From NCBI GenBank assembly GCA_903930455.1, contig CAIYYT010000235.1:771-64770 (forward strand): a DNA stretch of 64,000 nt, given 5' to 3'. The notes under the pieces are model-generated. The model made no database searches. It worked only from the letters and a program-made list of their open reading frames with translations, and had not been told where the DNA came from. Both the position numbers and the translations under genes were made by a program. This document shows, one piece after another, positions 712 to 57,536 of the stretch; the first letter of the stretch is position 1; every line of letters starts with the position of its first letter. This DNA is from an uncultured bacterium (GTDB taxonomy: Bacteria; Zixibacteria; MSB-5A5; CAIYYT01).

Positions 712-785
<74 letters not shown>

Positions 786-863: not shown

Positions 864-1814
864 GTGGGAATGTTCCATCTCAGACATGTGCAAGGATTGT
901 ACGACTTGGTCGATAAAAAAAACATGGGGCCAAACAATTGGAAAATATACATCGATGCGTTTCTGTTCGGTTGCAAGGTCAACAACCTGACGGAAAACTC
1001 GATCTCAAGCTACGCTGAACGCCTCGGGTATCTCGTGCGGCATCTGACCGAAAAGGGGATTGATATTGAAGACGTCACTAGGGCACATCTGCAGGAATAC
1101 ATCTGCTCGATGATGGTCAAGCTCAGCGACGCCACGGTCAACGGCCGCATTCAGGCGATGCAACGCTTCTGGAACTACCTCACTGAAGAAGGAATCTGGA
1201 CGAAGCCGAACCCGATGCACAAGATCAAACGCGTCAAGGCAGAGAAGAAACTCAAGGAAGTCATCACTGAGGATCAAATTGCCGAGGTAGTCGGGGCCGC
1301 CAACAAGAAGACTTTTGCTGGCCATCGCAACGTCACTATGCTGATGATGTTTTTTGACACGATGATCCGGCGCAACGAACTGATCACGCTGACTATTGAA
1401 AACGTCGACTTAAAGGCAGGTCTGATTCGGGTCTTCGGCAAAGGGCGAAAATGGCGGGAAGTTGCAATGGGCTCGCGCATGACGAAGATTCTGCACTTTT
1501 ATCTGGCACGCTTTCGCAATGGCATCCCAGGTGATCTGGTCTTTTGCACGAAAGATGGAAAGGCGCTTGATAAGGATAATGTCCGGCATATTGTGCATCG
1601 TATGGGACAGAAGGTCGGGATCCACATCCATCCGCATCTGCTCAGACACTCCGCCGCGACCTGGTTTGTACGACATGGTGGCTCTCCTGCAATTCTGCAG
1701 CGAATCATGGGGCATACCAGCCCAGTCGTGACAGCGGGATACACCCACTTGAATAGCCAAGATATGGTCGATGCATACCAGAAGTACAGTCCGGCAAACA
1801 GTGTCAGGATTTGA
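864..1814 (+). CDS. Tyrosine recombinase/integrase (XerC/D-like, phage integrase family)
   Basis: The C-terminal catalytic region reads HLLRHSAATWFVRHGGSPAILQRIMGHTSPVVTAGYTHL (R-H-R-Y type). An N-terminal SAM-like core-binding region is present. It lies immediately 3' of the tRNA. An alternative start is ATG 924. Confidence 0.85.
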   Translation: MGMFHLRHVQGLYDLVDKKNMGPNNWKIYIDAFLFGCKVNNLTENSISSYAERLGYLVRHLTEKGIDIEDVTRAHLQEYICSMMVKLSDATVNGRIQAMQRFWNYLTEEGIWTKPNPMHKIKRVKAEKKLKEVITEDQIAEVVGAANKKTFAGHRNVTMLMMFFDTMIRRNELITLTIENVDLKAGLIRVFGKGRKWREVAMGSRMTKILHFYLARFRNGIPGDLVFCTKDGKALDKDNVRHIVHRMGQKVGIHIHPHLLRHSAATWFVRHGGSPAILQRIMGHTSPVVTAGYTHLNSQDMVDAYQKYSPANSVRI

Positions 1815-2128: not shown

Positions 2129-2803
2129 ATGTTGTATGTCTCTCCTGATGAATTTAGTATTCTCAAAGCCAGATGTAGAATCGAAAGACAGATCAGTAAG
2201 AAGTTCTTGTTTCTTTGCTGTTTGACAAGTCTAGACGATTGCGAGGTCACGCGTGTGAGAGTATCCGTTTCCGGAAGCCATTCAACAGGGAAGACTTCAC
2301 TTTGCGAAAACACCAGTGTGCTTCTCGCTGGCAGCTGTCGAAGTGAAGTAGCAATAATCAGAGAAGTTGCCAGAGATCTGATCTCTGCAGGCATACCACT
2401 CAACAAAGACGCTACAACCGATTCGTATGTGATCTACATCAGGATGCAGTTAGAGAGGGAACGAATGACAAGTGCGAGTACAGTGCTCAGTGATCGCTCG
2501 CTGGTCGATCTCCTAGCTTACATAAGGGCGATCAATAACCCAACCATCTCGAAGGACTTCATTGGAATGGTTGAAGAAGTTGTGCGAGTAGAATCAGGCT
2601 ATTTCGATTTATATTGCTATTTGCCAATTGAGTTTCCCTTAATCGAGGACAACACAAGAATTGTAGACTTTGGCTATCAAAAACAGGTCGACAACTGCTT
2701 GAAAGAAATTCTGGAAGGTTTTGGGCTGAAACACGTATCCTTACATGGAAGTCTACAAGAGCGCTGTGCCAATCTTGTAAAACTATTAGCAATTGGCACC
2801 TGA
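2129..2803 (+). CDS. AAA_28/NadR-like P-loop nucleoside kinase-like ATPase
   Basis: Walker A is GSHSTGKTSL. Downstream pattern EVAIIREVARDLISAGIPL...DRSLVDLLAYIRA matches the AAA_28 (NadR ribosylnicotinamide kinase-like) architecture. The ORF extends upstream to 1925 with no clear start. A GTG at 2255 is also possible. Confidence 0.55.
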   Translation: MLYVSPDEFSILKARCRIERQISKKFLFLCCLTSLDDCEVTRVRVSVSGSHSTGKTSLCENTSVLLAGSCRSEVAIIREVARDLISAGIPLNKDATTDSYVIYIRMQLERERMTSASTVLSDRSLVDLLAYIRAINNPTISKDFIGMVEEVVRVESGYFDLYCYLPIEFPLIEDNTRIVDFGYQKQVDNCLKEILEGFGLKHVSLHGSLQERCANLVKLLAIGT

Positions 2804-2924
2804 AGTAATTTGCATCTTGGAAGTCATTCTCTTGCTCCGACTAGGCTTGGGGAAGTAAAAGCTAACTAGTCAATCATTCAAAGTTTTTGCTTGACAGCCA
2901 TAGCTCACTGATTCATAATTACTT

Positions 2925-3521
2925 ATGGTTCTTAGGCCTCAGAACAAGAAAATAGCGGATAGCTCAACTGACATGGTGATTCTGCTGGAAAATACGGATC
3001 CCGGAACCAATGCAGGGAGCGAATCTTGTTCACTTATGACTCACGATCTCTTTCAGAAAAACACACTTAAGATTTATTTTGCTGGTTCAATCCGTGGAGG
3101 TAGGGAGTTTGTCCGAGTCTACGAAACGATCGTAAAGACTCTAGAGAACTTCGGTCATTTTGTTTTGACGAAGCATGTCGCCGACGGTTCACTCTCAGCC
3201 GAAACAGACCACAGCGACCCGGTCGACGTCTATTCACGAGACATGAAATGGCTACGTGCCGCTGATCTGGTTGTTGCGGAAGTTACAGTACCTAGTCTCG
3301 GAGTCGGTTATGAACTCGGAATGGCAACATCTCTAAGAAAACCGACCCTATGCTTGTACCACGAGAGCAAGGATTTGTCAGCACTTTCAAACCTCATACG
3401 CGGAGTGCGAGAACCCGAATTCTCTGTTCGTCTTTACGAATCAGACACGCAGGTCGAGATAATAATCAGTGAGTTCCTTGAATCTTGCTCCGCGGATAAG
3501 GCCGAAACCCCGCCTAAGTGA
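2925..3521 (+). CDS. DNPH1/Rcl-like 2'-deoxynucleoside 5'-phosphate N-hydrolase (nucleoside 2-deoxyribosyltransferase superfamily; MilB/BlsM-like)
   Basis: IYFAGSIRGGREF and VVAEVTVPSLGVGYELGMA...KPTLCLY are near-identical in pattern to DNPH1 (IYFCGSIRGGR...VVAEVTQPSLGVGYELG). An alternative start is ATG 3036 (MTHDLFQK...). Confidence 0.8.
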   Translation: MVLRPQNKKIADSSTDMVILLENTDPGTNAGSESCSLMTHDLFQKNTLKIYFAGSIRGGREFVRVYETIVKTLENFGHFVLTKHVADGSLSAETDHSDPVDVYSRDMKWLRAADLVVAEVTVPSLGVGYELGMATSLRKPTLCLYHESKDLSALSNLIRGVREPEFSVRLYESDTQVEIIISEFLESCSADKAETPPK

Positions 3522-3525
3522 TAGG

Positions 3526-3936
3526 CTACGAATTGCCTCGGGACAATCGAGGCAGGATTTCGGTTTTCAGAAGTGGAGACAAATCATTTCTATTTGAATC
3601 GATATCTGTCCAGATTATTTCTTCGATCTCGCTTTGAGGTGACGAACACCCAATTATCTCGCCTGAATAGGTTACTAGCACCAACTCCGCGGCTTCGGAC
3701 GCGGCTGGTCCCGTGCACGTGCAAAATGGTTTGATAGAGCCCTGATCGACCTCGACGCCTAGCTCTTCATCGATCTCGCGAATCAGACAGGCAAGATCAG
3801 ACTCCCCGAGATTGGGTTTTCCACCTGGCAAAATCAGGTGTTCGCTATTACGTTTTCGGACCAGAAGAATCCTTCGATCTCTTACGACAATGAGGCCAAT
3901 TTTCGTAATTCGCATCCTATTCATGAGTCCTATCAC
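3526..3936 (-). CDS. NUDIX hydrolase
   Basis: Nudix box GGKPNLGESDLACLIREIDEELGVEV (GX5EX7REUXEEXGU). The 4-bp overlap with the upstream gene suggests an operon. Confidence 0.8.
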   Translation of the reverse strand: MIGLMNRMRITKIGLIVVRDRRILLVRKRNSEHLILPGGKPNLGESDLACLIREIDEELGVEVDQGSIKPFCTCTGPAASEAAELVLVTYSGEIIGCSSPQSEIEEIIWTDIDSNRNDLSPLLKTEILPRLSRGNS

Positions 3937-4706
3937 TCGCTAGGAAAATCAATGACGGATTCAAGACAGGAGGCAACTGCATCACCTAATTGACTGTCGA
4001 TATCGTCTTTCCAGCGTACGCTTGGAGACGATTTCATTTCGGCAATCTGTTCATAAGAACGATTGCACACCAACAGCGCGCCCGCTTTCTTTTCTTTCAA
4101 GCTCACTATAACAAAAATCGGGGCACATTCCAACTCGATGCCTAATACGCCGCGGTCACGCCAATAATCGTAGTCAGCAATGCTGAGTGAACTGTAATAT
4201 GAGTTTTTGGTCAAGATCATTCCTCTGTGATACGTATGTCGGGCTGCATCTAGAGAAGCTCCCAATCTTGTCTGAATCTCATTTGATGGGACTGAGGGAT
4301 AGTTTAGTGATACGTATCCCTCCGACGTGCCGTCTTCTCGGACGAAACCAGTAGGGATGACGAAATCTCCAACCCTCATGGTGTCGGAAATTCCCCCAAC
4401 GCTTCCAAGCTTGCAGAATGAATCTACTCCGAGCCCGATTAGTTCATGCACCATAATACTCGTAGCAAGCGGGCCAATTCCGGTGACACCTATGAGAACA
4501 GTTCTACCGCGATAGACAGCTTCATGGATCTCAAATTGGCTGTGAATTCCAAGACATGTCATGCTATCGCAGTGACGGCTTATGATTTGTGCATATCTCG
4601 TGTTGTGGACTAATATGGCACTTGCAGAGTGACGTCCGCTCCTGTCGATTTCGAAATGAAATGGGATATCCTTTTGCACTCTATAATTGTGTCGCGAAAT
4701 CGTCAA
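3933..4706 (-). CDS. PNP_UDP_1 family nucleoside phosphorylase/nucleosidase (purine/uridine phosphorylase or MTA nucleosidase-like)
   Basis: The fold signature VLIGVTGIGP...GSVGGISDTMRVGDFVIPTGFVRED...GIELECAPIF is typical of the PNP/MTAN family. Confidence 0.65.
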   Translation of the reverse strand: MTISRHNYRVQKDIPFHFEIDRSGRHSASAILVHNTRYAQIISRHCDSMTCLGIHSQFEIHEAVYRGRTVLIGVTGIGPLATSIMVHELIGLGVDSFCKLGSVGGISDTMRVGDFVIPTGFVREDGTSEGYVSLNYPSVPSNEIQTRLGASLDAARHTYHRGMILTKNSYYSSLSIADYDYWRDRGVLGIELECAPIFVIVSLKEKKAGALLVCNRSYEQIAEMKSSPSVRWKDDIDSQLGDAVASCLESVIDFPSE

Positions 4707-5313
4707 GTAGGCGCTCCTTCAACTCGTCGCTCGACACCAAACGGTGAGGGACTTCGATTGCACGTGTCTCAATCATACAGACATCGGTGAACATCAATTC
4801 CTCTATGGCAACAAGCCCATTGGTTCTGGCTGATAGACCTGATGTAAGTAGATCAATAACAAAGTCAACTTCAGGCAGGTAAGCAACGGCTTCGGCAGCT
4901 CCTTTGATCTGGATGATACGGCAATCGGTCAACCCTTTTCTCTCAAGATACTCAGAACAAAGATGGGGATATTCCGTGGCAATAGTAGCTCCGTTGGAAA
5001 GAATGTGACTCGAGTTCTCTCGGCAACATAAGGCTATTCGTGACTGGCGCAGCGAAAGTTTCTCAATGATGTTGACATGAGATTTCGATTCACAGATGCA
5101 GTCAAACCCGCACAGTCCATAGTGTACGAATCCTCGGGTGACCATCGCCGGAATATCCCATCCCCTCAAAAGGAACATCCTTGTACGATCCGAAAAGAAT
5201 GTGAGTCGACTGTCCGTGTGATCTAGGTCTAATCCGAGGAGCGTGATGACCGGACCATGGAGCTTACTAGGGTACGATGGAATAGCAACCCTTAGACTAG
5301 TGTTTATCACCAA
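4681..5313 (-). CDS. HisG-like ATP phosphoribosyltransferase-family protein (short form, type IV PRTase)
   Basis: LRVAIPS..., WDIPAMVTRGFVHYGLCGFDCICE and LPEVDFVIDLLTSGLSARTNGLVAI align with the short-form HisG motifs (LKLAIPKG; DVPTYLVHGVADIGFCGTD; DLIVDITETGRTLKENNL). It sits in a non-histidine context. Confidence 0.65.
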   Translation of the reverse strand: MVINTSLRVAIPSYPSKLHGPVITLLGLDLDHTDSRLTFFSDRTRMFLLRGWDIPAMVTRGFVHYGLCGFDCICESKSHVNIIEKLSLRQSRIALCCRENSSHILSNGATIATEYPHLCSEYLERKGLTDCRIIQIKGAAEAVAYLPEVDFVIDLLTSGLSARTNGLVAIEELMFTDVCMIETRAIEVPHRLVSSDELKERLLDDFATQL

Positions 5314-6271
5314 GCTCCTTTCTCAGCTTAGTAGTAAATGCTGTGACTGCGGAAATCTTCTGTTTCCCTCGAAGCCATGTAACAGGCGAATCCACGAACG
5401 GAAAGATAAGCGACAGGGGAACAAGTACCCCAGCTCCAATCAACGTTACGCCAGTCAGCAAAGTGTTTTTCACCGTATCAATTAACACGCTTTTCATTGA
5501 AAGTTTCGACTGGACCAAATCACCGACTTCTCGGTAGTATCCGTCGAACAACTCACTGACTATACGTCCAAGTTCTTGCTGCTGAATTGATCCATTGCTA
5601 AACGCATTCGTGTGTTTAAGGACCTCATCTCTGAATTTCTGGTGGTGCAAATTTAGATCGATAATCTGGTCCGCGCCCAAGACACTGAGCGTAGGCAGCT
5701 TTTGTCCGACAAGGAATTCGGACACCACTCGTTCTTCGATGTTTTGATAGGACCCTAACGATCTTAATCCGAGAAGGCTATCCATTTCGTTGGGATTGTA
5801 GACGACCCTATCGGATTGGAAATACTGCGAAAGAAAGCAGGGCCATAGAGCGTTACGGAAATAGACCATTTCAGTTGTGCTATGGCTAATGCGTTTGTGA
5901 TCTTTGTCTAAGAGATTTGCACGTTCAATCCTCTGTCGGACTGTATCGGTTACAGAGTCATAGAATTGAACATAAGCGTCATTATCGATGGACTGGATCT
6001 CGATGTCATTAGAAAGAACTCTCTTAGTCGCTTTAAGGATGCCAAGCCCCGGATATTGCCAAAGGACAATTCTTCTGGCTTCGATGAGAGGATTGAGAGT
6101 CCCAATAATTCTCTTCCTTGCATCTTTAGGTATTCCAGGTGCTAACTGCAACGATGCAGGCACAAGCACAACGTCGGCAAACGTCACAACGCTTTGCAGA
6201 ATTCTTTCATACTCATTTAAGCCGATGTAAGCAGTATCTGCCAAGAGTATTTTGAAGGGGGCTTTCGTCAC
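5297..6271 (-). CDS. Hypothetical protein with hydrophobic C-terminal segment, co-operonic with the nucleotide enzymes
   Basis: A 324-aa ORF with no motif recognised. The C-terminal TLLTGVTLIGAGVLVPLSLIFPF looks like a membrane anchor. Start and stop overlap the neighbouring genes. Confidence 0.5.
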   Translation of the reverse strand: MTKAPFKILLADTAYIGLNEYERILQSVVTFADVVLVPASLQLAPGIPKDARKRIIGTLNPLIEARRIVLWQYPGLGILKATKRVLSNDIEIQSIDNDAYVQFYDSVTDTVRQRIERANLLDKDHKRISHSTTEMVYFRNALWPCFLSQYFQSDRVVYNPNEMDSLLGLRSLGSYQNIEERVVSEFLVGQKLPTLSVLGADQIIDLNLHHQKFRDEVLKHTNAFSNGSIQQQELGRIVSELFDGYYREVGDLVQSKLSMKSVLIDTVKNTLLTGVTLIGAGVLVPLSLIFPFVDSPVTWLRGKQKISAVTAFTTKLRKELGDKH

Positions 6272-6897
6272 TTCTCTCCCAAACGCATCCTTACGTAGGC
6301 CAGGTCATGCTGATAAATGTGGTAGTCCCCAACAACATGAGAGTAGTTTCCAGGCGTGAGACGGAGCCGTGTTGCTTCCTGCCTCAGCAAACGACTAAAT
6401 GCTATCATATCCGGATAGGCCGAATTCCAAGCATCATTACTTCGAAGATAGACCGAAAGGTGCAGTGTTTTCCCTTCGCGTATGAAATGGCAATATATCA
6501 TTCCAGGTGGCTCGCTCGACCTGAAATCTGTTGCCGGATTCCAGAAAACAAGAATTGCTCGTCGTGTTGAAGGATTGTCACTTAATTCCCTTCGAACCCA
6601 ATCTAGTTGTGACAAGGAATCATCAGCTTCGGAAAGCATTCGGTCTCTCAGAATATGTACGTTAGGGCCGCCTCGACAAACATGATCAGAGTATTGGTCC
6701 AAGTACTCGGAACCCCACACGGAGAGCCTCGATTGCTCAAGGTGATCCTGGAGTTTATTTATCAGAAGACACAGGTTTAGAATTCGGGTAGTCAGCATGC
6801 CTGATGGAGCTGCCGAATATCGTCCAGAACTTGCAGCCAACATGCCGATACTCTTCTCCCACACGCGCGCAATACTATTACCCTTGATGACTTTCAC
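6268..6897 (-). CDS. Thymidylate synthase-family protein, short form (dUMP/dCMP/CMP hydroxymethylase-like)
   Basis: RRAILVFWNP (compare RRIIVSAWNV), MIYCHF (catalytic Cys-His), SVYLRSNDAWNSAYPDMIAFSRLL (compare [21 protein letters not shown]) and GDYHIYQHD (compare GDAHIY). At 209 aa it is shorter than ThyA by a truncated N-terminus. Confidence 0.75.
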   Translation of the reverse strand: MKVIKGNSIARVWEKSIGMLAASSGRYSAAPSGMLTTRILNLCLLINKLQDHLEQSRLSVWGSEYLDQYSDHVCRGGPNVHILRDRMLSEADDSLSQLDWVRRELSDNPSTRRAILVFWNPATDFRSSEPPGMIYCHFIREGKTLHLSVYLRSNDAWNSAYPDMIAFSRLLRQEATRLRLTPGNYSHVVGDYHIYQHDLAYVRMRLGEK

Positions 6898-7067: not shown

Positions 7068-7460
7068 TCAGGTGGTCATAGACGCCTTGGATTCTACCAT
7101 ACTTCCAGGAGCCCCTTGCTGCCGCGCTGAATAAGCTTCGGATCTTTATTCAGCTTGATCATCAAAGCCTCAACTGAGTCAATAACGGCGTGGTGCACGA
7201 CTGTTACCCATGTTCTGAGGTCCTGGTGAATCAGAATGTTCTTAGGAGCGGAGAGCGCGTCAGCCTAGCCAGTCATCTTCTCCGCTGCCCATTTCTTCAA
7301 GAAAACCGGCTGGACTGTCAGAAATCGGCAACAGCCCAAGTGCACGCTGCAATCGGAATACCAATATACATGTGACAGGTCCGGAATGGGTTTGGGTCAA
7401 CGACGAAGAACTCGCGCCTGACTTTCGCAAACCATCCAAAACTCTTTACTTCTTCAACAG
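7068..7460 (-). pseudogene. Degenerate tandem copy of the 3' part of the 7732-8241 gene
   Basis: Nucleotides 7068-7460 align by eye with 7729-8100. Shared strings include ccaggaNcccttgct, ggtcctggtg and ctttacttcttcaa. The frame is broken by in-frame stops, and no long ORF survives. Confidence 0.55.
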
Positions 7461-7731
7461 ACAACGAGCATTCACCCAGAATGCGAGCCTCTTGTAGCCT
7501 CTTCTAGATGTCTGAAAGCACACTCTGGGCTTGACTTGATACGTGGTCGACAAGCATCGGCCGCAGGGGTCATCAAGAGAAGCAGCGTCTAAAATGTATT
7601 CAACCTCTTATCGGCTGCTCAGCGACATTTTACCGAAACCCGTCAATCAATCATTGACATAGCAGTTCCTTGCGACATGGTCATTTGCATTAAGGCATTA
7701 ATTTTGATTCTAGAATCGGTCATGACGGTTC

Positions 7732-8241
7732 TTACCATACCTCCAGGAACCCCTTGCTTCCACGTTGTAGGAGCTTCGGATCCATGCTCAAGTTCTTCAG
7801 CAGCGCATCTACCGAGTCGACGACGCAATGGTGAACGACCGTGACCCAGGCTCGCAGGTCCTGGTGCACCAAGATATTCTGCGGCGCGGACAACGCGTCG
7901 GCAGCTCCCGTCAGTTTCGCAGACGCCCATTTCTTCAGAAACCCCGGCTCGACTGTGAGGAACCGGCAGCAGTCTAAGTGACTGCCGTAGTCGCGAACAC
8001 CTATGTACATGTGGTAGTCGTGAAACTGGTCAAGACTCACGATGAGGAACTCGCGCCGAACTTTGGCAAAGAACCCCGAGCTCTTTACTTCTTCAAGTTC
8101 CCACGTGCAGCCACCTGGGAAATTCGATGCTGAAAGCCTAGCCTTGATGTGGTCCAAAAGCCAACGACCGTTTCCGGCAGCGTTGTCGACGATCATACTC
8201 CACTCGTTGAGAATTGATTCTTCCTTCAATGTGACGGCCAT
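7732..8241 (-). CDS. Hypothetical protein (169 aa)
   Basis: Intact ORF. A decayed paralogous fragment lies immediately downstream. No recognisable domain. Confidence 0.5.
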   Translation of the reverse strand: MAVTLKEESILNEWSMIVDNAAGNGRWLLDHIKARLSASNFPGGCTWELEEVKSSGFFAKVRREFLIVSLDQFHDYHMYIGVRDYGSHLDCCRFLTVEPGFLKKWASAKLTGAADALSAPQNILVHQDLRAWVTVVHHCVVDSVDALLKNLSMDPKLLQRGSKGFLEVW

Positions 8242-10792: not shown

Positions 10793-11118
10793 AGGATGCC
10801 TCCCTAATGGGTGTATAGGCAGAGTGTATATCTTCTGTAGATCGGCTGTAGATTGACGTTCTACACCCTTATCGCCACACCCTGATGCCTAAGAGCTACT
10901 TAATTATTCTTTGTTCACCCAACTAAACCCGTCTTTTCGACGGTTGTACCACTGCCGCCTACTTAGGCAGATGATGATATGTCACAATTGCCAGGTTCTT
11001 GTTGACAGAGTTGCTTGAATGCGCGACCTTCACAAGACCTATGGGAGGTAAGTTGCTGTTGGACCTCATGTAATCGTGGAAAAGTACAGACAGATCATTG
11101 AAAGGTGAGGACGCTGGA

Positions 11119-11892
11119 ATGGGAGAGAAACTTAGGATTTTTGTAGAGAGAAATCTCAAGCTAGTGAATCTCATCGTGCTTTTGGTTGGCATTCTTCTCA
11201 TGGTAATTGGATTGCTATTGGGCAAGGCTAGTCCTTCTGTTGCCTTGGTAATGGTAGGTGTTGGGAGCTCGGTCGTGGCAAGCGCTCTTGTTTTCTACCT
11301 CTCCAGCTTTATGTTGGTTCGTCAATTGGAGGTTCAAGATATTGTGTCGGAATGGGGACTTGTAGCGGTCTACAGAACTCGCGCGGAAATGAATCAGAAG
11401 AGTAATCAATATTTGGGAAAGGCTAAGGGTAAGCTGGATATTATCGCATTCGGACTGCGTTCACTGCGCGACAATATGTCCTCTGTAATTGAGGAGAGAG
11501 TCAAGTCGGGTCTCTCGATTAGAATACTGACGATTGACCCCAATTCGACCGTCGTGAGTTTAAGGGAGATAGACGAACAGCAGTCTGACGGATCGATCAA
11601 GAAGACTATCTGTGATCTCGCATCTTGGGTGTCACAAATTCGCGCACATCAGGCGAGTGGCTCTCAGGTGGAGATTAGGTTCTATAATGCGTTGCCTCAG
11701 GATTTCTATTACCGGGTAGACGACCATTTATTTGTCGGCCCGTACCTGTTTGGAAAGACTAGTCAGCAGACTATTTCTTACGAGTTTAGGTCCGGCTCTC
11801 TCGGGTTTGACTATTGGACTGAGTATTTTGATTCATTGTGGTCGAACAGGAATTTCTCGGTGATTCATGAAGAATTCGGCAAAAGTGCGTGA
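11119..11892 (+). CDS. 2TM membrane protein with ~200-aa C-terminal soluble domain of unknown function
   Basis: Two N-terminal hydrophobic helices. An AAAGGTGAGGA RBS precedes ATG 11119 (the ORF track starts at TTG 11098). A distant paralogue lies at 22694-23536. Its 3' end overlaps the radical SAM gene. Confidence 0.55.
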   Translation: MGEKLRIFVERNLKLVNLIVLLVGILLMVIGLLLGKASPSVALVMVGVGSSVVASALVFYLSSFMLVRQLEVQDIVSEWGLVAVYRTRAEMNQKSNQYLGKAKGKLDIIAFGLRSLRDNMSSVIEERVKSGLSIRILTIDPNSTVVSLREIDEQQSDGSIKKTICDLASWVSQIRAHQASGSQVEIRFYNALPQDFYYRVDDHLFVGPYLFGKTSQQTISYEFRSGSLGFDYWTEYFDSLWSNRNFSVIHEEFGKSA

Positions 11893-12832
11893 TAGTGAGA
11901 TCCTCTCTGTGGATCGTCGGACACAAAGTGAGATGTTACCCGAATACTCGGATGGCCGATTTTTCATAAGCCCAGTGTTGGGTTGTTCTGCTCATTGCAG
12001 CTACTGTTATATCTACAGTGAAGGATTTGGGTCCAACGTCTGCAAGAATCCGCTTTCTATTGGGCGACTGATTTCTTGGCTTGAATCTCATGAGCGATTT
12101 CGTCTAGGGCGTAAGGGATCAATACTCTCTGTCGGTGCCTGGGGAGATCCATTTGCTCCTGAGGTTTCTGTTGAGGTGACTCTTGAATTGATTCGCCAAC
12201 TTTCGGCTCTAGGAAATCCCATTCAACTTATTACGAAATACCCTATTACTGAAGATGTACTGGATGCCCTGGCCAAAGTCTCGCTGTATCGGGGCCACTT
12301 GTTGTTTTCAACGTCGATCGTATCCATTACAAACTGGCAATCGATTGATCCGAAAGTATCATCCCCAGAAAATAGATTGAAAATGCTTGCGCGAATGGAA
12401 AACCGCCAAATTCCAACGAACTTGATGATCAAACCATTTCTGCGTGGCATTACTGACATTGACACCGTCATCTTTAAGCGTGAATTGATGCTAAACCGCG
12501 TAACGAGTTGTGTGGTTGGCGTGCTCTATTGGAACGCCAAGATAGCTGAACGAATCTATGGTTCTACTCACGACCATAATACCTTCACGAAGATGCTGAG
12601 GAATCGGATATTGGATCACGGACTCGTCTGTCGACCTGCTTCCATTTACAGAACGTTCTCTGGAGAGGCTATGGATGGGTTTTGTGCTGAGTTGATGGAT
12701 GCTGGTATCCGCGTTTTTAAGAACGCGTCTTGCGTCAGTGCATGGTTGACGGACACAAGACATGTGAGTGGACTAAGGCAATCCGATCCGTTAGGACTCT
12801 GCGTGAATTGCGAAAACGCTGCTTGCCAATAA
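11867..12832 (+). CDS. Radical SAM protein, SplB/COG1533 (DNA photolyase-like) family
   Basis: SPVLGCSAHCSYCYIYS matches the COG1533 CxxxCxxC cluster (PY.GCSHGCIYCYA). An alternative start is ATG 11933. Confidence 0.7.
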   Translation: MKNSAKVRDSEILSVDRRTQSEMLPEYSDGRFFISPVLGCSAHCSYCYIYSEGFGSNVCKNPLSIGRLISWLESHERFRLGRKGSILSVGAWGDPFAPEVSVEVTLELIRQLSALGNPIQLITKYPITEDVLDALAKVSLYRGHLLFSTSIVSITNWQSIDPKVSSPENRLKMLARMENRQIPTNLMIKPFLRGITDIDTVIFKRELMLNRVTSCVVGVLYWNAKIAERIYGSTHDHNTFTKMLRNRILDHGLVCRPASIYRTFSGEAMDGFCAELMDAGIRVFKNASCVSAWLTDTRHVSGLRQSDPLGLCVNCENAACQ

Positions 12833-12901
12833 CTACCGCCTTTGGTATTTTTACGGTTAGAAGGTGAACCGATCACTAAGGACATTTCAAGCAAGAGCTT
12901 T

Positions 12902-13555
12902 ATGCGCAAGACAGATGTGATAAAGAAGACAGTCATTCATGTTCGCAGTCTGCAGCAGCAGGAGAGTACTGGGCACGATTGGTGGCACACCCACAGAGTC
13001 TGGCAGATGGCCAAGAAAATAGGTCGGATAGAGAAAGCCGACCTATTAGTTGTTCAGTTATCTGCGCTGCTGCATGACGTTGCAGACTGGAAATCACACG
13101 AAGGCGACTTCGAAGTTGGTGCCAGGGAGGCACGAACGTGGCTCTCGCGATTCAGTCTTGATCCCAAATGCATTGACCATATCTGCTGGATAGTACAGTC
13201 CATTTCATTCAAAGGTGTTGCCGCCAAACGGAGCGATCTAACGCTCGAAGCGATGGTGGTTCAGGATTCAGATCGATTGGATGCGCTTGGAGCAATCGGA
13301 ATCGCCAGAACATTTGCCTACGGTGGAAGCAAGGGGCGGGCCATATATGATCCAAGTGTTCGTCCAGTGAAGCATAAGACGGTCAAGTCGTATGTCGACA
13401 ATAAGAGTCCATCTATTAACCACTTCTATGAGAAACTTCTGCTTCTGAAGACGCGAATGCATACAGAGACTGCTCGCCGTATTGCTTCGAACCGCGATCA
13501 GATCATTCGTGACTTCTTGAGAGAATTCTACGATGAATGGCGGGGTAGGAAATAA
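12902..13555 (+). CDS. HD-domain phosphohydrolase
   Basis: H..H at WWHTHRV and HD at ALLHDVAD, then DSDRLDALGAIGIAR. The ORF could start earlier at 12842. Confidence 0.75.
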   Translation: MRKTDVIKKTVIHVRSLQQQESTGHDWWHTHRVWQMAKKIGRIEKADLLVVQLSALLHDVADWKSHEGDFEVGAREARTWLSRFSLDPKCIDHICWIVQSISFKGVAAKRSDLTLEAMVVQDSDRLDALGAIGIARTFAYGGSKGRAIYDPSVRPVKHKTVKSYVDNKSPSINHFYEKLLLLKTRMHTETARRIASNRDQIIRDFLREFYDEWRGRK

Positions 13556-17399: not shown

Positions 17400-18212
17400 T
17401 CATTCAACCTCCTTCGTGGTTTGTTTCTGCTTCTGCGCTGACGGCTGCACGGAGCACTCCGTCCTGCTACTTATGATTCTTCCGCAATGATGCTGGCGTC
17501 CGGCTAAAGGGATTGTGCCAGTCTGCTGCTGTGGAAATAGTCGCCGCAACGTCACCTCGTAGTTGTGCTGCACGTCGGCGAGACACTCGGTGCCGTACAG
17601 GTCCCACGTCGTCTTCACTGACGCGTGGCCGAGGATCTTCGAGAGCGACTCCACCGATCCGCGAACCTGCTTCCAGTGCCTGGCGAAGCTGTGGCGGAGC
17701 AGGTGGCACGTCACTAATGCGTACTTCGGATTCGGATTGCTCACGCCGGCGCGTACTCCGGCCTGAGCCACGATCCTGTTGACTTGGCGCGCACTGAGCG
17801 CACCACCGGTGCGCGACCGGAAGAGCGTACCTTGCGGTTCCGGCGCAAGGACAACCAGTGCCTCGGCGAGTTCGCGGCGCACCGGGACCTGGCGCGTCTT
17901 ATTCCCTTTTGCGCTTCGAATCACGATCAAGTTCCTCGCTGTATCGACATCACACATCTTCAATGCAGCCGCTTCACAACGCCGCATGCCAGTCTCGACC
18001 AGGAGTTGTATGAGAAGCCGGTCACGCGGACACGACGCTGCCGCGATCAAACGTTCCAGTTCCGCAAGGGAGAGGTGGTACTCCGCGTTCGAGAGCTGGT
18101 GGGTCGCTCTCACGAGCGAACGATTGAAAGGTCTGGTGAACCTGCGGAATACGCCGGTAAGCGACAAAAGCAACCGGCCTATCAAACTACGGGTCGAGGT
18201 CGAGTGTCTCAC
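17400..18212 (-). CDS. Tyrosine recombinase, catalytic domain only (FimB/FimE-like architecture or truncated integrase)
   Basis: HLLRHSFARHWKQVRGSVESLSKILGHASVKTTWDLYG (R..H..R..Y). No core-binding domain. The start codon is GTG at 18210-18212, 3 bp from an inverted repeat. Confidence 0.65.
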   Translation of the reverse strand: MRHSTSTRSLIGRLLLSLTGVFRRFTRPFNRSLVRATHQLSNAEYHLSLAELERLIAAASCPRDRLLIQLLVETGMRRCEAAALKMCDVDTARNLIVIRSAKGNKTRQVPVRRELAEALVVLAPEPQGTLFRSRTGGALSARQVNRIVAQAGVRAGVSNPNPKYALVTCHLLRHSFARHWKQVRGSVESLSKILGHASVKTTWDLYGTECLADVQHNYEVTLRRLFPQQQTGTIPLAGRQHHCGRIISSRTECSVQPSAQKQKQTTKEVE

Positions 18213-18214
18213 TC

Positions 18215-18229
18215 TTGCAGAAGTGGGAC
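18215..18229. repeat. Inverted repeat, left arm (ttgcagaagtgggac)
   Basis: Perfect 15-bp reverse complement of 18426-18440. The 196-bp spacer lies between the two recombinase genes. Confidence 0.8.
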
Positions 18230-18425
18230 ATTGGTTGAAGGGTCTGGGATTCTGTAATGCCGGGGATTTTGCCTGAAGCTGGTTGTTATTCAGATGGATA
18301 GAAGGTTAGGACCGGTGATATTCAGCACACCCTTGACGAACAGTGATGATCTGATAGAGTTGAAGCCAAAGTGGCAAAAGTACCGTAAATGCTTGAAATT
18401 GGAGGAGTTATGCGCAGCTAGAAAC

Positions 18426-18440
18426 GTCCCACTTCTGCAA
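18426..18440. repeat. Inverted repeat, right arm (gtcccacttctgcaa)
   Basis: Perfect reverse complement of 18215-18229. A related direct motif (ggacatt.g..g.ttctgt.aat) follows each arm. Confidence 0.8.
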
Positions 18441-18671
18441 ATGTAGGACATTCGTGGGTTCTGTCAATCGAATTTTCGTACTTTCTGCGAAAGTTTCTCC
18501 TAAAAGATACGTTACAGATGGCAGTCTCTCAACTTCATTGAATTCCGCGGGGCAACTTTTCCATCCTTTTCAATGACCGACGAGTTCGTTTACTCTCAAT
18601 TGAGTTCGAGTAATCTCCCGTTTGTATCACTCGCCCCAATTTGATCTAAGGTTCTCTAAGGTCCCAACCCT

Positions 18672-20462
18672 ATGCAAAGAGCCATTGTCTATTGCCGTGT
18701 CTCGACCGAAGAGCAAGCCGAGGACGGTCACCACTCGCTCGCCGCGCAAGAGTCGCTCTGCCGACGCTGCGCTTCTGAAAAGCAATTTGAGATTGTTGAA
18801 GTTTTCCGCGATCCCGGCAAGAGCGCTACTACGATGAACCGGCCAGGACTGCAAGACGCGCTTGCTCGCTGCCAGTCGGATCATTCTATCAAGGCCGTCT
18901 TCGTACAAGACACAGATCGGCTTGCTCGAAATACAAAGGATCATCTCACTATTCGAGCAATGCTCAAGAAGCACGACGTGCGACTCATTTCGGTATCACA
19001 ACCAATGCTTGAAGATAGCGCCGAAGGCATGATGATTGACACTATCATCGCGAGCGTGAATCAGTTTCAATCTGATATCACTTCCCGCAAGACCATGAAA
19101 GGGCTTGAGGAAAAAGTCAGAAACGGCGGCTGGCCAGCGCTCGCTCCAGTAGGCTACAAGAATGTTGGCGTGGGACCTGAGGGCCAATCCCGAATCGTTG
19201 TCGTTGACAATGAATCGGCTCCTCTCGTGCAAAAACTGTTCCGATCGTATGCAACCGGTAACTATTCCGCGCGAGAACTTAATGACATCTTCTACAAACA
19301 AGGTCTCCGGTCCCGAACCGGAAGGAAGCTCCAAGACAGCAAGATCTTCGACATGCTTGAAAACAAATTCTATCTTGGTGAGGTACGCTGGGGCGGAATC
19401 GTCGCCAAAGGACAACATGAACCATTGATTGATGCCAGTCTATTCGCGGCTGTAAAGGCGGTCTTGATGGCACACGGTGGTAACAGAAGTAGAAAGCGAA
19501 AGCACGATTTCCTACTCCGTGGCTATCTCTTCTGCGGCAGTTGCGGCGGGCGGCTAATTGGCGAGAAGCATATTCTGAAGGGAGTAGCCTACTATCGTTG
19601 TCACAAGCGCGGCGGCTGTGAACCGTTGTGTTCAGCCCCTGAACTGGAATCAGAAGTTGCTGACCTATTCAGTCATTTGCAGCCTTCTCCTGGGCTCCTC
19701 AAGGCAACGGAGACAGCCTTGCGGGCACGCGCTAATGCTCATAAGAGTAACTTTGAAGCCGAGCGATCTTCGCTTCTGAAGCGAAAAGCTGTTGTTGATA
19801 CAAAGCTGCACAAGCTGGAAAGCAAATGGCTTGACGGGCTTCTTGATGATGCTGATTTCAAGAGGCTCCGCGTCGATCTTAAGAAACTGCAATCGGATAT
19901 GGAGAACCAAATTGCTGGTATGGAATCGAAAAGATCACTGGACTATGATGCCCTCGCAGAAGTTGTTGCCTTCGCACGCGATCTTGGGAACTCATACTCA
20001 AGAATCCCAGATCATCTCAAGAGATTGTTGCTGAAGTTTGCTTGGGAAAGACTTGAGGTTGCCAATAGGCAAATCACAGTGGCTCTCCCGACGATGCTGT
20101 TCCGTAGTCTTAGCAATTTTGAGGAAGGCTCTCCTCGGGGAACACAGAAACCCGTCCAATATGAACGGGCTTCTATGCAAGGGGGTGACTGTCACCCCAC
20201 ACGGTTCCCAATGAACCAAGACTTGGTTCGATTAGGCACCGAGTGGGGTCGCAAGCCAACACATAATCGTCCAGAGAAAACGCAAGAAGTTCCTTTTGCA
20301 GGCAACATTTCCGACCTCATGCAGCTCCTTGATTCTGATCCAGGCTACATTCAGCATGTCCTGACTCTCTTTGCGGAGATTCGGGATGGGATGAAGGCGT
20401 GGAAGGAAGGTTTGAATTCTTCCGATCCTGTCTCTGTCGATGCCAAATCCATTGCTCGATGA
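18672..20462 (+). CDS. Large serine recombinase (resolvase/invertase N-terminal domain, recombinase domain and zinc ribbon)
   Basis: Catalytic N-terminus AIVYCRVSTEEQ, a recombinase domain, and a zinc-ribbon (YLFCGSCGG...YYRCHKRGGC) followed by a coiled-coil. Confidence 0.85.
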   Translation: MQRAIVYCRVSTEEQAEDGHHSLAAQESLCRRCASEKQFEIVEVFRDPGKSATTMNRPGLQDALARCQSDHSIKAVFVQDTDRLARNTKDHLTIRAMLKKHDVRLISVSQPMLEDSAEGMMIDTIIASVNQFQSDITSRKTMKGLEEKVRNGGWPALAPVGYKNVGVGPEGQSRIVVVDNESAPLVQKLFRSYATGNYSARELNDIFYKQGLRSRTGRKLQDSKIFDMLENKFYLGEVRWGGIVAKGQHEPLIDASLFAAVKAVLMAHGGNRSRKRKHDFLLRGYLFCGSCGGRLIGEKHILKGVAYYRCHKRGGCEPLCSAPELESEVADLFSHLQPSPGLLKATETALRARANAHKSNFEAERSSLLKRKAVVDTKLHKLESKWLDGLLDDADFKRLRVDLKKLQSDMENQIAGMESKRSLDYDALAEVVAFARDLGNSYSRIPDHLKRLLLKFAWERLEVANRQITVALPTMLFRSLSNFEEGSPRGTQKPVQYERASMQGGDCHPTRFPMNQDLVRLGTEWGRKPTHNRPEKTQEVPFAGNISDLMQLLDSDPGYIQHVLTLFAEIRDGMKAWKEGLNSSDPVSVDAKSIAR

Positions 20463-27470: not shown

Positions 27471-28301
27471 TTACTCGGGAAATATCTTAGTGAGAAGCTC
27501 CCGCAACTCCAACAGAACGCTTTCGAATGTTGGCAGATTGTCAACTTGATGCGCCAATCCGCGCTCCCAGAACGGGGCTGCTTCATTGACCCGATCAGGC
27601 GCAAAGAAATCCTCGACGACAGGGAGTGTTATTTCTTTGAATTCACATTTCTTTTCCAATATACCGAGCGTGTCATCGATGACAATGTCTTTCTTGTGCT
27701 GCTTCAGTAGAATCCAGACGTCATAGTAATCCCGACTCTTCCCGCGCTGGAGGATACTCCTGAGTTTCTCTGCGACAATTTCCTCAAGTGAGTACACTGA
27801 TAGTCGTGCATCGATGTCGTCCGTGTAGTCTCGGTGGACGAGTCTGCTGTTGGATGACGTAATAATCTTCTCGTCGAAAGCGATGTCTACACGAATGTTG
27901 TTCTTCTGGCCACTGGCTTTGCGTAAGGGACCATCGTAGCCAAGCTTGAGCTGCACGCTTGTGAGTGTGTCGCCCGTTTTCGGATACTGCGAATACTCGA
28001 TAACCCGCATTGGAACTCCAAATAGCCGTGTGGCATTTTCAGTTGTCGTCTGAAAGATCGCCTTGATTTTCTTTGGTTTCAAGATAACCCGGGAGGTGAA
28101 ATCCAAATCTTCTGAGAATCGCCACTCTGGGAAGTAGCACTTTTTGAGTGCTGTTCCACCCTTGAAGAGCAAGGACTTTTGCACCTGCTCGCTCTGCGAC
28201 AGAGCCATGAGGGCTTTCGAAAGCACGTAGTCCTTCTCCACGATGCCGGGGTCGATCTTGGCTTGCGCTGCCTTGGTGCGGATTTCCGTAGGGTCGATCA
28301 T
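27471..28301 (-). CDS. AbiEii/AbiGii-family nucleotidyltransferase toxin (type IV TA / abortive infection)
   Basis: EKDYVLSKAL...LFKGGTALKKCY...RFSEDLDF is the DUF1814/AbiEii signature. Confidence 0.75.
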   Translation of the reverse strand: MIDPTEIRTKAAQAKIDPGIVEKDYVLSKALMALSQSEQVQKSLLFKGGTALKKCYFPEWRFSEDLDFTSRVILKPKKIKAIFQTTTENATRLFGVPMRVIEYSQYPKTGDTLTSVQLKLGYDGPLRKASGQKNNIRVDIAFDEKIITSSNSRLVHRDYTDDIDARLSVYSLEEIVAEKLRSILQRGKSRDYYDVWILLKQHKKDIVIDDTLGILEKKCEFKEITLPVVEDFFAPDRVNEAAPFWERGLAHQVDNLPTFESVLLELRELLTKIFPE

Positions 28302-28305
28302 AAAC

Positions 28306-29127
28306 TCAAGTCAGTCGCCAGTCAGTAAGACTTTTGGGGGTTACGTTTACGCGGACATGCCAATCAGCACAGATGAAACCAGTTTTGTTCTTGTTTGGGT
28401 CCAACAGCACAATGCTCGGTGTAACTAGCTTGAGTGCTTCTTTACGCGATCTGGCAGTCCAGAGGTCGAGGGTGTCAAGAAGAAATCCCAAACGCTTGAT
28501 AATCGAGACGTTTTCCATACGGACAGCATAGTCAACCACGGTTTCAAGGTTGGTGTCTTTCCTTCCGTTCCAAATGCCTTTGGCCACCTCGACGATCTCA
28601 CCACAATAGCGGGGCTGGTCGAGACAGTCGGCAATAGTCTTCTCTTTGTCAGCGACGGCAATTTTGCGGGTATCTACCCAATGCTCTGAAAACCCAAAAA
28701 AACGAGATTCTTTTAAGCGAACGAAGCGAATGGCGATTCCCTTAAGTTCTAACGGCAACTTCATTCTCTGCGTAGCAACATAGATCGTGCGTGACGGTTG
28801 TTCCGTCCAGCCGTAGAACTGCAGCGCTGTCCAGTAGCTCACGTAGTAGGGCTTGATCAGCTGGGAGGCGATGATAATACCTTCCTCTGTGTATTCTCCG
28901 GTCTTCCAAGCTGCAGGGGGAATGACCAAGTATTTCGCTTTCTCGATGCGAAGGAGTTTCTGCTTTTCGACAAGCCTATGAACGATCTGTGAGACCGTCT
29001 TGTTGCCAAACCCAAGCAGGCGGGCTGCTTCCTCAACAGAGAAAACCTTCAGCCCACTACTGCCGATGGTTGCGATGAGTTCTGCCTCCTGAGAACCTAT
29101 TCCGGTCATCTTTTTACGATTTATCAT
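28306..29127 (-). CDS. AbiEi-family antitoxin/transcriptional regulator
   Basis: An N-terminal wHTH (FSVEEAARLLGFGNKTVSQIVHRLVEKQKLLRIEKAKYLV) and a C-terminal AbiEi domain, with a 4-bp gap to AbiEii. Start taken at MINRKK. Confidence 0.7.
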   Translation of the reverse strand: MINRKKMTGIGSQEAELIATIGSSGLKVFSVEEAARLLGFGNKTVSQIVHRLVEKQKLLRIEKAKYLVIPPAAWKTGEYTEEGIIIASQLIKPYYVSYWTALQFYGWTEQPSRTIYVATQRMKLPLELKGIAIRFVRLKESRFFGFSEHWVDTRKIAVADKEKTIADCLDQPRYCGEIVEVAKGIWNGRKDTNLETVVDYAVRMENVSIIKRLGFLLDTLDLWTARSRKEALKLVTPSIVLLDPNKNKTGFICADWHVRVNVTPKSLTDWRLT

Positions 29128-29818
29128 TATTGCCTCAACGACAACAATCATAAACCGATGAAATCTGGTTGTCAAGTATAATTTGCCACAGAAAGAGGGC
29201 TTGAAATCAGAAGACTCCAAGCCCTTGCAAAAAACTTCGCCTTTCCCTGATTTGGTTTTGAAAAGGGCTGATTTGGCTGCGCCTTCAGCTGAGCAGTACA
29301 CCGGCCCCGCGCTCCAGGTCCACACGCCAGTTAGCTACAAGCAGAGTGCAGGAGTACGGAGTTAAGGGCTGCCCAGTGCGTGAATACCTCCTCGCCTTCC
29401 CGGAGTCCGGTGTTCCAGACAGCTTCGATTTTGTTTCCGGCCCAGAGACAATCATCAAGTTAGCCGTTCTCATCGACTCGGGCCACGGGATAATCCGAAT
29501 AGCGACCTCCAATGGTGATTTAAGCAAGTCAGTTACCACTCTTAGTGCGAAAACCGTCTGTCCCTCAAGTCTCCTCCGGAAGGGATTAACAAATTCTGGA
29601 AAGATGCAAACAGACTGAAGAACATTCCTCCAATTTCTGAAGAAATCAAGACCAGAAAATGATTGCCACTACTCAATCCATCTCTTAGTTTTCGGCACAC
29701 TTCGTCCGACTTGAATTGACGACGTACAGACCATGAAGGGGGAGATGAGTTCAGTAGAACGTGCTGCGAAATTGAAACAGGAGAGACAAGTTTACTGTAT
29801 ACTCTAGGAGAGGTAGGG

Positions 29819-33972: not shown

Positions 33973-34019
33973 CGTTTCCTCCTTGTCTTGATACGCAAGC
34001 GTATAAACGCGAATCACTT

Positions 34020-53330: not shown

Positions 53331-53374
53331 GGCTCATAACCCGAAGGTCGCAGGTTCAAATCCTGCCCCCGCTA
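53331..53374. repeat. Direct repeat (attR core): displaced 3' half of tRNA-fMet, followed by CCA
   Basis: 44 bp identical to 742-785. Here the repeat continues gctaCCA, matching a native tRNA 3' end. There is no 5' half upstream. Confidence 0.85.
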
Positions 53375-55008: not shown

Positions 55009-55015
55009 CGTCTCT

Positions 55016-57415: not shown

Positions 57416-57536
57416 GTAAACGACGAAATCGATGAAAGTGCTGTATTGCTGATATGTTGATGCGATGTTGATGTCTCGGAATGGTTGAAGTATGGTTTCG
57501 AGCGGATTCGCGATGTTGGATTCACCTCGTGGTTTT

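Follow-up and report, generated by a model that had tools for sequence, protein, structure and literature searches.

We analysed a stretch of 64,000 nucleotides from an uncultured bacterium of the Zixibacteria (contig CAIYYT010000235.1, positions 771 to 64,770; hereafter, the window), focusing on a compact cluster of seven open reading frames (ORFs) at positions 2129-6897 (Table 1). A first-pass annotation made from the sequence alone had described this cluster as an island-borne set of nucleotide- and nucleoside-remodelling enzymes. The seven ORFs and their coordinates were confirmed, and every domain assignment was borne out by Pfam matches, all of which lie above the gathering score.

A cluster of nucleotide-processing genes in an integrated element

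Five of the genes are on the minus strand and encode, from first to last, a thymidylate synthase (TS)-fold protein, a 324-aa protein to which we refer as the partner, a short HisG-type phosphoribosyltransferase (PRT), a uridine phosphorylase (UP)-like enzyme and a NUDIX pyrophosphohydrolase. The genes overlap by 4, 17, 26, and 4 nt, which is the predicted layout of a translationally coupled operon. The remaining two genes, encoding an AAA_28 kinase and a DNPH1-like glycosidase, are on the plus strand and convergent on the operon. A promoter-like site is found ahead of the DNPH1-like gene (2891-2919), and no riboswitch from Rfam was detected upstream of the operon.

The cluster is situated at one end of a 52.6-kb integrated element, directly inward of the XerC/D-like tyrosine integrase that the element encodes. 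A 44-nt part of the tRNA-Met 3' end, repeated perfectly and in direct orientation, delimits the element at both ends (0 matches in 100 shuffles). The cluster is thus island-borne, as initially proposed. The element also encodes two Replic_Relax relaxases, one VirD4-like protein and one TrwB-like coupling protein, as well as the known defence genes AbiEi and AbiEii and an AIPR/AbiU protein.

Table 1. Coordinates of the cluster genes and of other features of the window
Feature	Position	Strand	Evidence or remark
AAA_28 P-loop nucleoside/nucleotide kinase	2129-2803	+	Pfam 7e-16, full-length profile match
DNPH1-like glycosidase, Nuc_deoxyrib_tr	2925-3521	+	Pfam 9e-15
NUDIX pyrophosphohydrolase	3526-3936	-	Pfam 1e-11; last operon gene
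UP-like NP-I enzyme, PNP_UDP_1 (PF01048)	3933-4706	-	1e-20
HisG-type (type IV) PRT, short form	4681-5313	-	Pfam HisG 1e-25
Partner, 324 aa	5297-6271	-	no Pfam family
TS-fold protein, Thymidylat_synt	6268-6897	-	Pfam 1e-14; first operon gene
attL, 44-nt tRNA-Met 3' part	742-785	+	tRNA gene 711-786
Tyrosine integrase of the element, XerC/D-like	864-1814	+	Phage_integrase 1e-34
attR, second copy of the 44-nt repeat	53331-53374	+	far end of the element
AbiEii and AbiEi	27471-29325		6e-76 and 2e-75; known defence genes
AIPR/AbiU protein	29819-31552		2e-38
Remnant of a 169-aa ORF	~7130-7480	-	frame-disrupted
169-aa ORF	7732-8241	-	
DUF5919, radical-SAM and HD-domain proteins	11098-13555	+	compact co-directional triad
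Tyrosine integrase beside large serine recombinase	17400-20462		
Por_Secre_tail protein	32071-34032	-	
N6 DNA methylase-SNF2 helicase fusion, 1045 aa	37114-40251	-	

Conservation of a six-gene unit

Gene-neighbourhood conservation, suggested in the first-pass annotation as a check, was found at three further loci, L004, L005/L006/L007, and L008 (L numbers designate the loci compared here). In all three, six genes of the window cluster recur with their order unchanged, namely, those for the TS-like protein, the partner, HisG, the PNP-family enzyme and NUDIX, together with the convergent Nuc_deoxyrib_tr gene. Across the four loci, each of the six proteins displays pairwise identities of 35-57%, and no DNA similarity between the window cassette and the other three loci is detectable; hence, the six-gene unit has been kept intact over a long divergence. 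The similar divergence of all six proteins points to selection on the whole unit. The cassette is very rare, with only three relatives of the partner among 5.8 billion protein clusters, so that the subfamily comprises 4 proteins including that of the window. Recombinase genes adjoin the L005 and L008 cassettes, and the L004 contig is too short to judge.

The kinase gene is absent from L005 and L008, for which sequence beyond the DNPH1-like gene is available, and is therefore accessory and outside the conserved unit; the L004 contig ends within the DNPH1-like gene and carries no information on the kinase. The assignment of this protein to AAA_28 stands, but its resemblance to NadR, after which it had been named, is weak, with 'thymidylate kinase' being the best PHROG match (6e-18). 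In L001 and L002, the kinase, HisG and PNP genes had seemed truncated, but the DNA of both is 100% identical to that of the window and the short calls are gene-calling artefacts. L003, where the calls for HisG and PNP are also shorter, differs at 12 positions.

No his or thy pathway genes are present near the cassette, and the available sequence of the four loci contains neither a his gene nor HisZ. Along with the location inside an att-bounded element, this sets the proteins apart from housekeeping ThyA and HisG, in line with the initial suspicion. The same holds for the proposal that the combination matches no described system: it is not catalogued in PADLOC-DB v2, and we found no description of it in the literature.

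A TS-fold protein without the conserved nucleophile

The TS-like protein is short (~210 aa) and matches PF00303 with an E-value of 1.3e-14 (54 bits; cut-off 24). The best model is that of archaeal TS (TIGR03283, 2e-23), matched over its full length at a score below the cut-off. According to the structural study of MilA, the nucleophilic Cys of the TS family is 'extremely conserved' (E. coli C146, T4 C148, MilA C155), whereas Asp versus Asn selects for cytosine versus uracil and Lys/Ala versus Arg/Ser selects for ribo versus deoxyribo substrates (PMC5175136). In the TS-like proteins of the cassette, the nucleophile column is occupied by Gly in 4 of 4 versions and no Cys column is invariant. Three approaches agree on this placement: HMMER alignments to solved TS structures, a MAFFT alignment with E. 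coli ThyA and T4 gp42 as references, and an alignment of the four sequences.

All four versions keep R112, R113, R152 and S153 of the phosphate clamp, H193 and Y195 as ligands of the sugar, and D155; the ligand equivalents in E. coli TS are R126', R127', R166, S167, H207, and Y209. Asp163, in all 4 cassette proteins, stands where E. coli TS has Asn177 and is of the cytosine type, and the sugar-selector positions are Arg/Ser, the deoxy type. The region of the catalytic Glu (E. coli E58, T4 E60) is shortened and poorly aligned. The predicted pocket is that of a dCMP-binding enzyme, such as T4 gp42. Members of this subfamily would bind a dCMP-like nucleotide, and canonical covalent C5 alkylation appears unlikely. 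Searches of phages with the TS-like protein retrieved only ordinary thymidylate synthases, at identities of 33% or less.

The 834-bp gap upstream of the TS-like gene contains a frame-disrupted remnant of the neighbouring 169-aa ORF. Two traces identify it: a 77-nt stretch (7400-7476) that is repeated at 8039-8115 with 75% identity, and the '...DPKLIQRGSKGLLEVW' tail, which can still be recognised. In L008, the equivalent position, as judged by the place and length of the ORFs, holds a 169-aa ORF followed by an intact 254-aa ORF in the gap.

The accompanying enzymes

Intact catalytic motifs were recognised in five enzymes of the cluster. The DNPH1-like protein matches rat Rcl (4e-28) and human DNPH1 (~1e-27) among the structures in the PDB, the match spanning the entire catalytic domain. 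All four orthologues share the motifs YFAGSIRGGR and PSLGVGYELG without change and keep the Tyr, Asp, Ser and GYELG-Glu positions, the last of which is the nucleophile in Rcl. DNPH1 is named '5-hydroxymethyl-dUMP N-hydrolase' by the PDB depositors. In MilB, the F17Y substitution switches the specificity from CMP to dCMP, and Arg23 recognises the 5-hydroxymethyl group (PMC4081090). The cassette enzyme carries Tyr at the position of MilB Phe17 and Arg at that of Arg23, the DNPH1 pattern, and is thus predicted to be deoxy-specific and possibly hydroxymethyl-preferring. No MilB chains were found among its PDB matches at E <= 0.01. The homology begins at residue 48 and the true start of the protein may, therefore, be Met38 (nt 3036).

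The NUDIX box of the window protein, GKPNLGESDLACLIREIDEELGV, is intact with respect to the consensus G-x5-E-x7-R-E-U-x-E-E-x-G-U. The catalytic Glu and Arg-Glu positions are kept in the four orthologues, the one substitution being that of the final Gly by Gln in L005. The HisG-type protein scores 102.4 bits against TIGR00070 (cut-off 75.75), conserves the phosphoribosyl pyrophosphate (PRPP) loop D-L-x-T-[ST]-G-x-[ST] and retains the motifs RGWDIP, ATEYP, and D-x3-[ST]-G-x-[ST]; the best solved HisG matches it with only 69 bits. Where HisG proteins usually have a G-I-T-G-x-D segment, all orthologues of the cassette (window, L004, L005, and L008) share an invariant CG.DC motif, which contains two cysteines.

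The phosphorylase, initially described as PNP/MTAN-like, does belong to the PNP_UDP_1 family but is closest to uridine phosphorylase (2e-25) rather than to PNP or MTAN. In uridine phosphorylase, Gln166 and Arg168 are the uracil ligands, and Arg30, Arg48', Arg91, and Thr94 are the phosphate ligands. In the UP-like enzyme, Gln166 and Arg168 are replaced (by Leu and Ile in the window protein, and the positions are not conserved in the orthologues), Arg48 is changed to Ser or Asp, Arg91 to Lys and Thr94 to Ser, with Glu198 and Arg223 being kept. As judged from these replacements, the base pocket is altered.

The partner protein and a wider family of cassettes

The partner had been left as a 324-aa unknown. 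It indeed has no Pfam family, yet is not a passenger: it forms a core with the TS-like gene. An HMMER scan of 1.84 billion representatives yielded 87 remote homologues, 31 of them at E <= 1e-10, most being 295-355 aa long, with a handful of short matches that resemble fragments; none of the 81 members scanned with Pfam scored above noise. The AlphaFold model obtained with a deeper alignment (pLDDT 85.3, pTM 0.84) combines a Rossmannoid domain at the N terminus with a helical bundle and, towards the C terminus, a hydrophobic segment modelled at low confidence (~residues 270-295), which is common to the family. Foldseek searches of the model against viral structures returned nothing, and the sequence profile found no relative in the PDB. 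Sequence searches and the predicted structure thus identify the partner (~320 aa) as a new family. No homologue was found with the partner alignment in GTDB representative genomes and IMG/VR or by tblastn in plasmids and phages. The possibility that the partner is a HisZ-like activator of the short HisG was considered and rejected, there being no similarity to class II aminoacyl-tRNA synthetases.

Inspection of nine independent contexts (window type, L009, L011, L012, L013, L014, L015/16, L017, and L018) revealed the partner gene directly downstream of a short TS-like gene in all nine, the partner homology being weak in L009 (hhalign E = 2e-4). Most of these contexts also encode a NUDIX protein. 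The TS-like gene and the partner gene constitute the conserved and previously undescribed core of a wider cassette family. Around this core, the cassettes variously encode dNK, uridine kinase (udk, L017), a guanylate-kinase-like protein, an HAD nucleotidase-like protein, oxidoreductases of the AKR, SDR and TauD families, and RpiB with a phosphomutase (L018), all of which fall within pyrimidine-nucleotide or sugar-phosphate metabolism. The BlsM-like glycosidases of related cassettes have Phe at the MilB Phe17 position and Thr at the Arg23 position. Only the Cys-less subfamily of the window encodes HisG and the UP-like enzyme.

The 12 TS-like proteins differ from one another at the nucleophile position: 5 have the canonical Cys (L009, L012, L014, L015, and L018), 2 have Gly followed by Cys at +2 (L011 and L013), 1 has Ser (L017), and the 4 proteins of the six-gene loci have Gly (window, L004, L005, and L008). 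Several of the cassettes have defence genes as neighbours: L015 is ~6 kb away from Dsr1 (9e-287), L011 abuts a Tsp45I restriction-modification (R-M) system, and L009 has an AbiEii-like gene. Integrases or a primase flank L005, L008, L014, and L017.

Sub-threshold matches to Q_salvage (the queuosine-monophosphate glycosidase family, E = 0.002) and to type I phosphoribosyltransferases (E = 0.009) were obtained for proteins of L017 (8121-9107) and L013 (2860-3873, minus strand). If these weak matches of accessory proteins are real, base release and re-ribosylation would recur across the family. L012 further encodes a B12-binding domain (1490-1951; 9e-12). A link to thiamine or hydroxymethylpyrimidine through the ABC transporter of L014 was rejected: its binding protein is SsuA/taurine-like and lies beside a sulfopyruvate-decarboxylase-like pair, and the transporter probably belongs to an unrelated neighbouring operon.

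Comparison with known systems

The known kinds nearest to the cassette are modules combining a TS-fold enzyme with an N-glycosidase from the family of nucleoside 2'-deoxyribosyltransferases (NDT) and nucleotide-pool manipulation by mobile elements. As in MilA/MilB and BcmA/BcmB, a TS-fold gene is linked to a Nuc_deoxyrib_tr N-glycosidase, the cytosine-selecting Asp (MilA Asp186) is shared with MilA and BcmA, and Arg is found at the position of MilB Arg23. Unlike in MilA and BcmA, the nucleophilic Cys is replaced by Gly, and Arg/Ser are found in place of Lys133'/Ala176. The glycosidase, which has the motif Y-F-A-G-S-I-R-G-G in place of the F-L-(G/A)-(G/A)-P-F-(R/K)-x-L of MilB and BcmB (PMC4081090), is far closer to DNPH1. 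The cassette also lacks tailoring genes and adds HisG, the UP-like enzyme, NUDIX, and the partner. The pairing of a CMP/dCMP hydroxymethylase with a CMP glycosidase, which the first-pass annotation had drawn from MilA/MilB, is unlikely because of the lost nucleophile, the deoxy-type Arg/Ser selectors and the DNPH1-type Tyr, and we do not retain it.

T4 gp42 shares with the TS-like protein the RSND...D motif, a deoxy-type pocket and the cytosine-type Asp, and the NUDIX enzyme of the cassette could supply dCMP. However, the TS-like protein is short and lacks the conserved Cys, and the cassette is not in a phage and encodes a deoxynucleoside monophosphate (dNMP) glycosidase that would destroy the product. 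The resemblance to DNPH1/Rcl is close (4e-28, with catalytic residues kept), the differences being an N-terminal extension and the setting in a bacterial mobile six-gene cassette. Similarly, the HisG-type protein scores above the TIGR00070 cut-off and retains the HisG motifs but differs in the absence of a his operon and HisZ, the location inside an att-bounded element and the CG.DC motif.

Enzymes that act on nucleotide pools, such as dCTP deaminase, dGTPase and the PNP-domain ATP nucleosidases of Detocs and CBASS, serve as defence effectors. The cassette resembles these effectors in its nucleotide-destroying enzymology and its location in mobile elements and defence islands, but consists of separate single-domain enzymes in an operon, in which neither a signalling nor a sensor module is recognisable, and it matches no PADLOC system. 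Of the pathways by which phages reconstitute NAD, NARP1 comprises the PRPP-synthetase-like Adps and Namat, and NARP2 comprises NamPT and NMNAT; none of their Pfam or NCBIfam families is represented among the cassette proteins. Also comparable is ThsI of type VIII Thoeris, in which a CMP-hydrolase/NDT-type domain has already been proposed as the immune effector. By sequence, the cassette lacks defining features of an active TS or hydroxymethylase, of a MilA/MilB pair, of uridine phosphorylase and of housekeeping HisG, and corresponds to no PADLOC system; it does contain a predicted DNPH1-type glycosidase, a NUDIX enzyme and a HisG-fold PRT.

A possible role in genetic conflicts

We propose, with a probability of about one in three, that the cassette, itself cargo of a mobile element, is involved in genetic conflict, namely, in anti-phage defence, and intercepts and dismantles 2'-deoxypyrimidine nucleotides. 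The preferred targets may be DNA precursors of the cytosine or 5-hydroxymethyl type. In this scheme, the NUDIX enzyme would convert (modified) dNTPs into dNMPs. The TS-fold protein, in a complex with the partner, would bind but probably not alkylate a dCMP-type nucleotide and act as a specificity, sensing or substrate-presenting subunit, with the C-terminal tail of the partner as a possible membrane anchor. The DNPH1-like enzyme would split dNMPs into the free base and deoxyribose 5-phosphate, and the UP-like enzyme would cleave the same base-sugar bond in nucleoside forms. The HisG-type enzyme would spend PRPP, either re-attaching the base as a ribonucleotide or making phosphoribosyl-ATP and thereby draining PRPP and ATP. 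The net effect would be to deprive a replicating invader of DNA precursors.

We infer every substrate, the complex of the TS-fold protein with the partner, the membrane anchoring and the biological role from gene content, conserved residues and genomic context. Besides the conservation of the whole unit, the dCMP-type pocket with its lost nucleophile, the DNPH1-type glycosidase, the intact NUDIX box and the PRPP loop of HisG, two further observations argue for the proposal: related cassettes with the TS-like and partner genes have independently recruited other pyrimidine-nucleotide enzymes, and the contexts are those of mobile elements and defence islands (AbiE, AbiU, Dsr1, Tsp45I R-M, and integrases). 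A nucleotide-dismantling role also has a precedent in type VIII Thoeris, whose effector, predicted to act on the nucleotide pool, is a domain of the CMP-hydrolase type (bioRxiv 10.64898/2025.12.03.692087).

Several points weigh against this proposal. In a gapped BLASTP alignment, Cys136 of the window protein, which lies at +4 from the canonical position, pairs with T4 Cys148; this +4 Cys is also present in L005, whereas L004 and L008 have Leu there, and it is the ungapped alignment, with Gly in the nucleophile column, that keeps the length of the beta-hairpin. The canonical Cys in 5 of 12 TS-like proteins suggests that the wider family includes probable active C5-alkylating enzymes, which would better fit biosynthesis. 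HisG has no obvious role in pyrimidine dismantling, and constitutive dNMP hydrolysis would be toxic, yet no regulator is evident. No defence-typical trigger or sensor is recognisable in the cassette. PADLOC matches to its components are limited to that of NUDIX to a candidate single-gene entry (PDC-S07, 6e-12) and to marginal ones of the partner to WH_III-A (E = 0.038) and of the kinase to LmuB (E = 0.0047). Finally, the context of L018 is apparently ordinary chromosome, and the family is so rare that enrichment in defence islands is not quantifiable from 9 contexts.

A more specific version of the proposal, which we regard as unlikely, is that the TS-fold protein and the partner form a two-protein immune sensor/effector core for phage deoxypyrimidine nucleotides, such as hm-dCMP and hm-dUMP (hm, hydroxymethyl), which would direct the NUDIX, DNPH1-like, UP-like and HisG-type enzymes to destroy these nucleotides.

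Alternative functions

The main rival to nucleotide dismantling in defence is a biosynthetic pathway that yields a modified pyrimidine as free base or nucleoside, that is, an antimetabolite or signal akin to the products of MilA/MilB or bacimethrin pathways. Along this route, the NUDIX enzyme would give a monophosphate, the TS-like protein would modify C5, the glycosidase would free the base, and the PRT and the phosphorylase would re-attach it to another sugar. In favour of this route, PenA, a HisG homologue, functions in pentostatin biosynthesis. The Cys-bearing members of the wider family and the tailoring-type oxidoreductases (AKR, SDR, and TauD) of related cassettes are consistent with such a pathway, and the weak Q_salvage and Pribosyltran matches may represent further base-releasing or base-attaching enzymes. 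Linkage of TS homologues to NDT-family glycosidases with the Arg/Lys motif is, moreover, documented for MilB homologues (PMC4081090). Biosynthesis thus suits the Cys-bearing relatives but fits the window subfamily poorly: Gly occupies the nucleophile position in all four members, with no invariant Cys; the pocket selectors and the glycosidase are of the deoxy type, unlike those of MilA/BcmA and MilB; and genes for methyltransferases, glycosyltransferases, peptide-forming enzymes, exporters or resistance are missing from all four loci. We consider this explanation doubtful for the cassette of the window.

A further alternative is that the element confers a metabolic trait, namely, the salvage or catabolism of (modified) deoxynucleotides and nucleosides, in which foreign or damaged pyrimidine deoxynucleotides would be split into base and sugar phosphate and recycled through PRPP. 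Such a route would draw on just the set of enzymes present, namely, NUDIX, a dNMP glycosidase, a nucleoside phosphorylase, a PRT, and a kinase. The core of L018 beside RpiB and the phosphomutase, in surroundings that show no obvious mobility, the uridine kinase of L017, and human DNPH1, which sanitises hmdUMP, as its name in PDB entries implies, are in keeping with this idea. It is nevertheless quite unlikely, given that no transporter or regulator is found in the four six-gene loci, that the subfamily is extremely rare (4 proteins in 5.8 billion clusters) and consistently neighboured by recombinases, and that salvage offers no place for a non-catalytic TS-fold protein or a possibly tail-anchored partner.

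Counter-defence, in which the cassette would rebuild or protect an ATP, NAD-related or dNTP pool depleted by host immune effectors, by analogy with the phage pathways that reconstitute NAD, seems improbable. The PRPP-dependent transferase, NUDIX and the NadR-C-like kinase resemble the logic of pool reconstitution, and the relaxases and coupling proteins imply that the element enters new hosts. By contrast, Pfam and NCBIfam scans of the cassette proteins revealed neither NamPT nor NMNAT nor any protein resembling PRPP synthetase, the kinase lacks conservation, searches of phage, plasmid and IMG/VR collections yielded no member of the partner family, and a dNMP glycosidase destroys nucleotides rather than rebuilding them. 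Least credible is the synthesis of modified dCTP for hypermodification of the element DNA: NUDIX, the TS-like protein and the kinase mirror the dCTPase, hydroxymethylase and kinase of T4 (gp56, gp42, and gp1), and the TS-like protein has the RSND...D motif of T4 dCMP hydroxymethylase, but there is no conserved nucleophile, the kinase is dispensable, the dNMP glycosidase would destroy the product, DNA-level modification enzymes are not present and the partner family is absent from phage collections.

Other genes of the element and the window

The element appears composite: relaxases and coupling proteins are each present twice, and a second integrase is found along with a large serine recombinase. 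The arrangement of a tyrosine integrase beside a large serine recombinase is also found in L005 (3296-6124), where the pair adjoins the cassette on its upstream side, which hints at a mobile backbone shared with the window. Por_Secre_tail proteins, which carry the C-terminal sorting domain of the type IX secretion system, are encoded in both the window and L005 (1494-3200), suggesting that the hosts belong to the FCB group (Bacteroidota and relatives). The triad of DUF5919, radical-SAM and HD-domain proteins has no PADLOC match and may be another uncharacterised cargo system; the triad was called in L001 as well, whose DNA is that of the window. The methylase-helicase fusion matches the ZorD and DpdE helicase models of PADLOC. 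Outside the element, at ~55000-59000, there is a strong shift in strand composition, with the GC skew reaching +0.21 and the AT skew reaching -0.33.

Implications

If the cassette functions as proposed, dismantling deoxypyrimidine nucleotides in defence, it would represent a new mode of nucleotide-pool manipulation in bacterial conflicts and the first role, other than in housekeeping or antibiotic pathways, of a dNMP glycosidase of the DNPH1 type and a transferase of the HisG type, with the thymidylate synthase fold retained for binding rather than catalysis. Should the TS-fold protein and the partner be the sensor core, the cassette would provide defence against the precursor pool of hypermodified phage DNA, by means of a thymidylate synthase turned pseudoenzyme receptor. 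The enzymes of the cassette are also possible tools for detecting or removing 5-substituted deoxypyrimidine nucleotides. Whatever its function, the new family of ~320-aa proteins, coupled to a TS-like gene in every context that we read, offers a handle for experiments.

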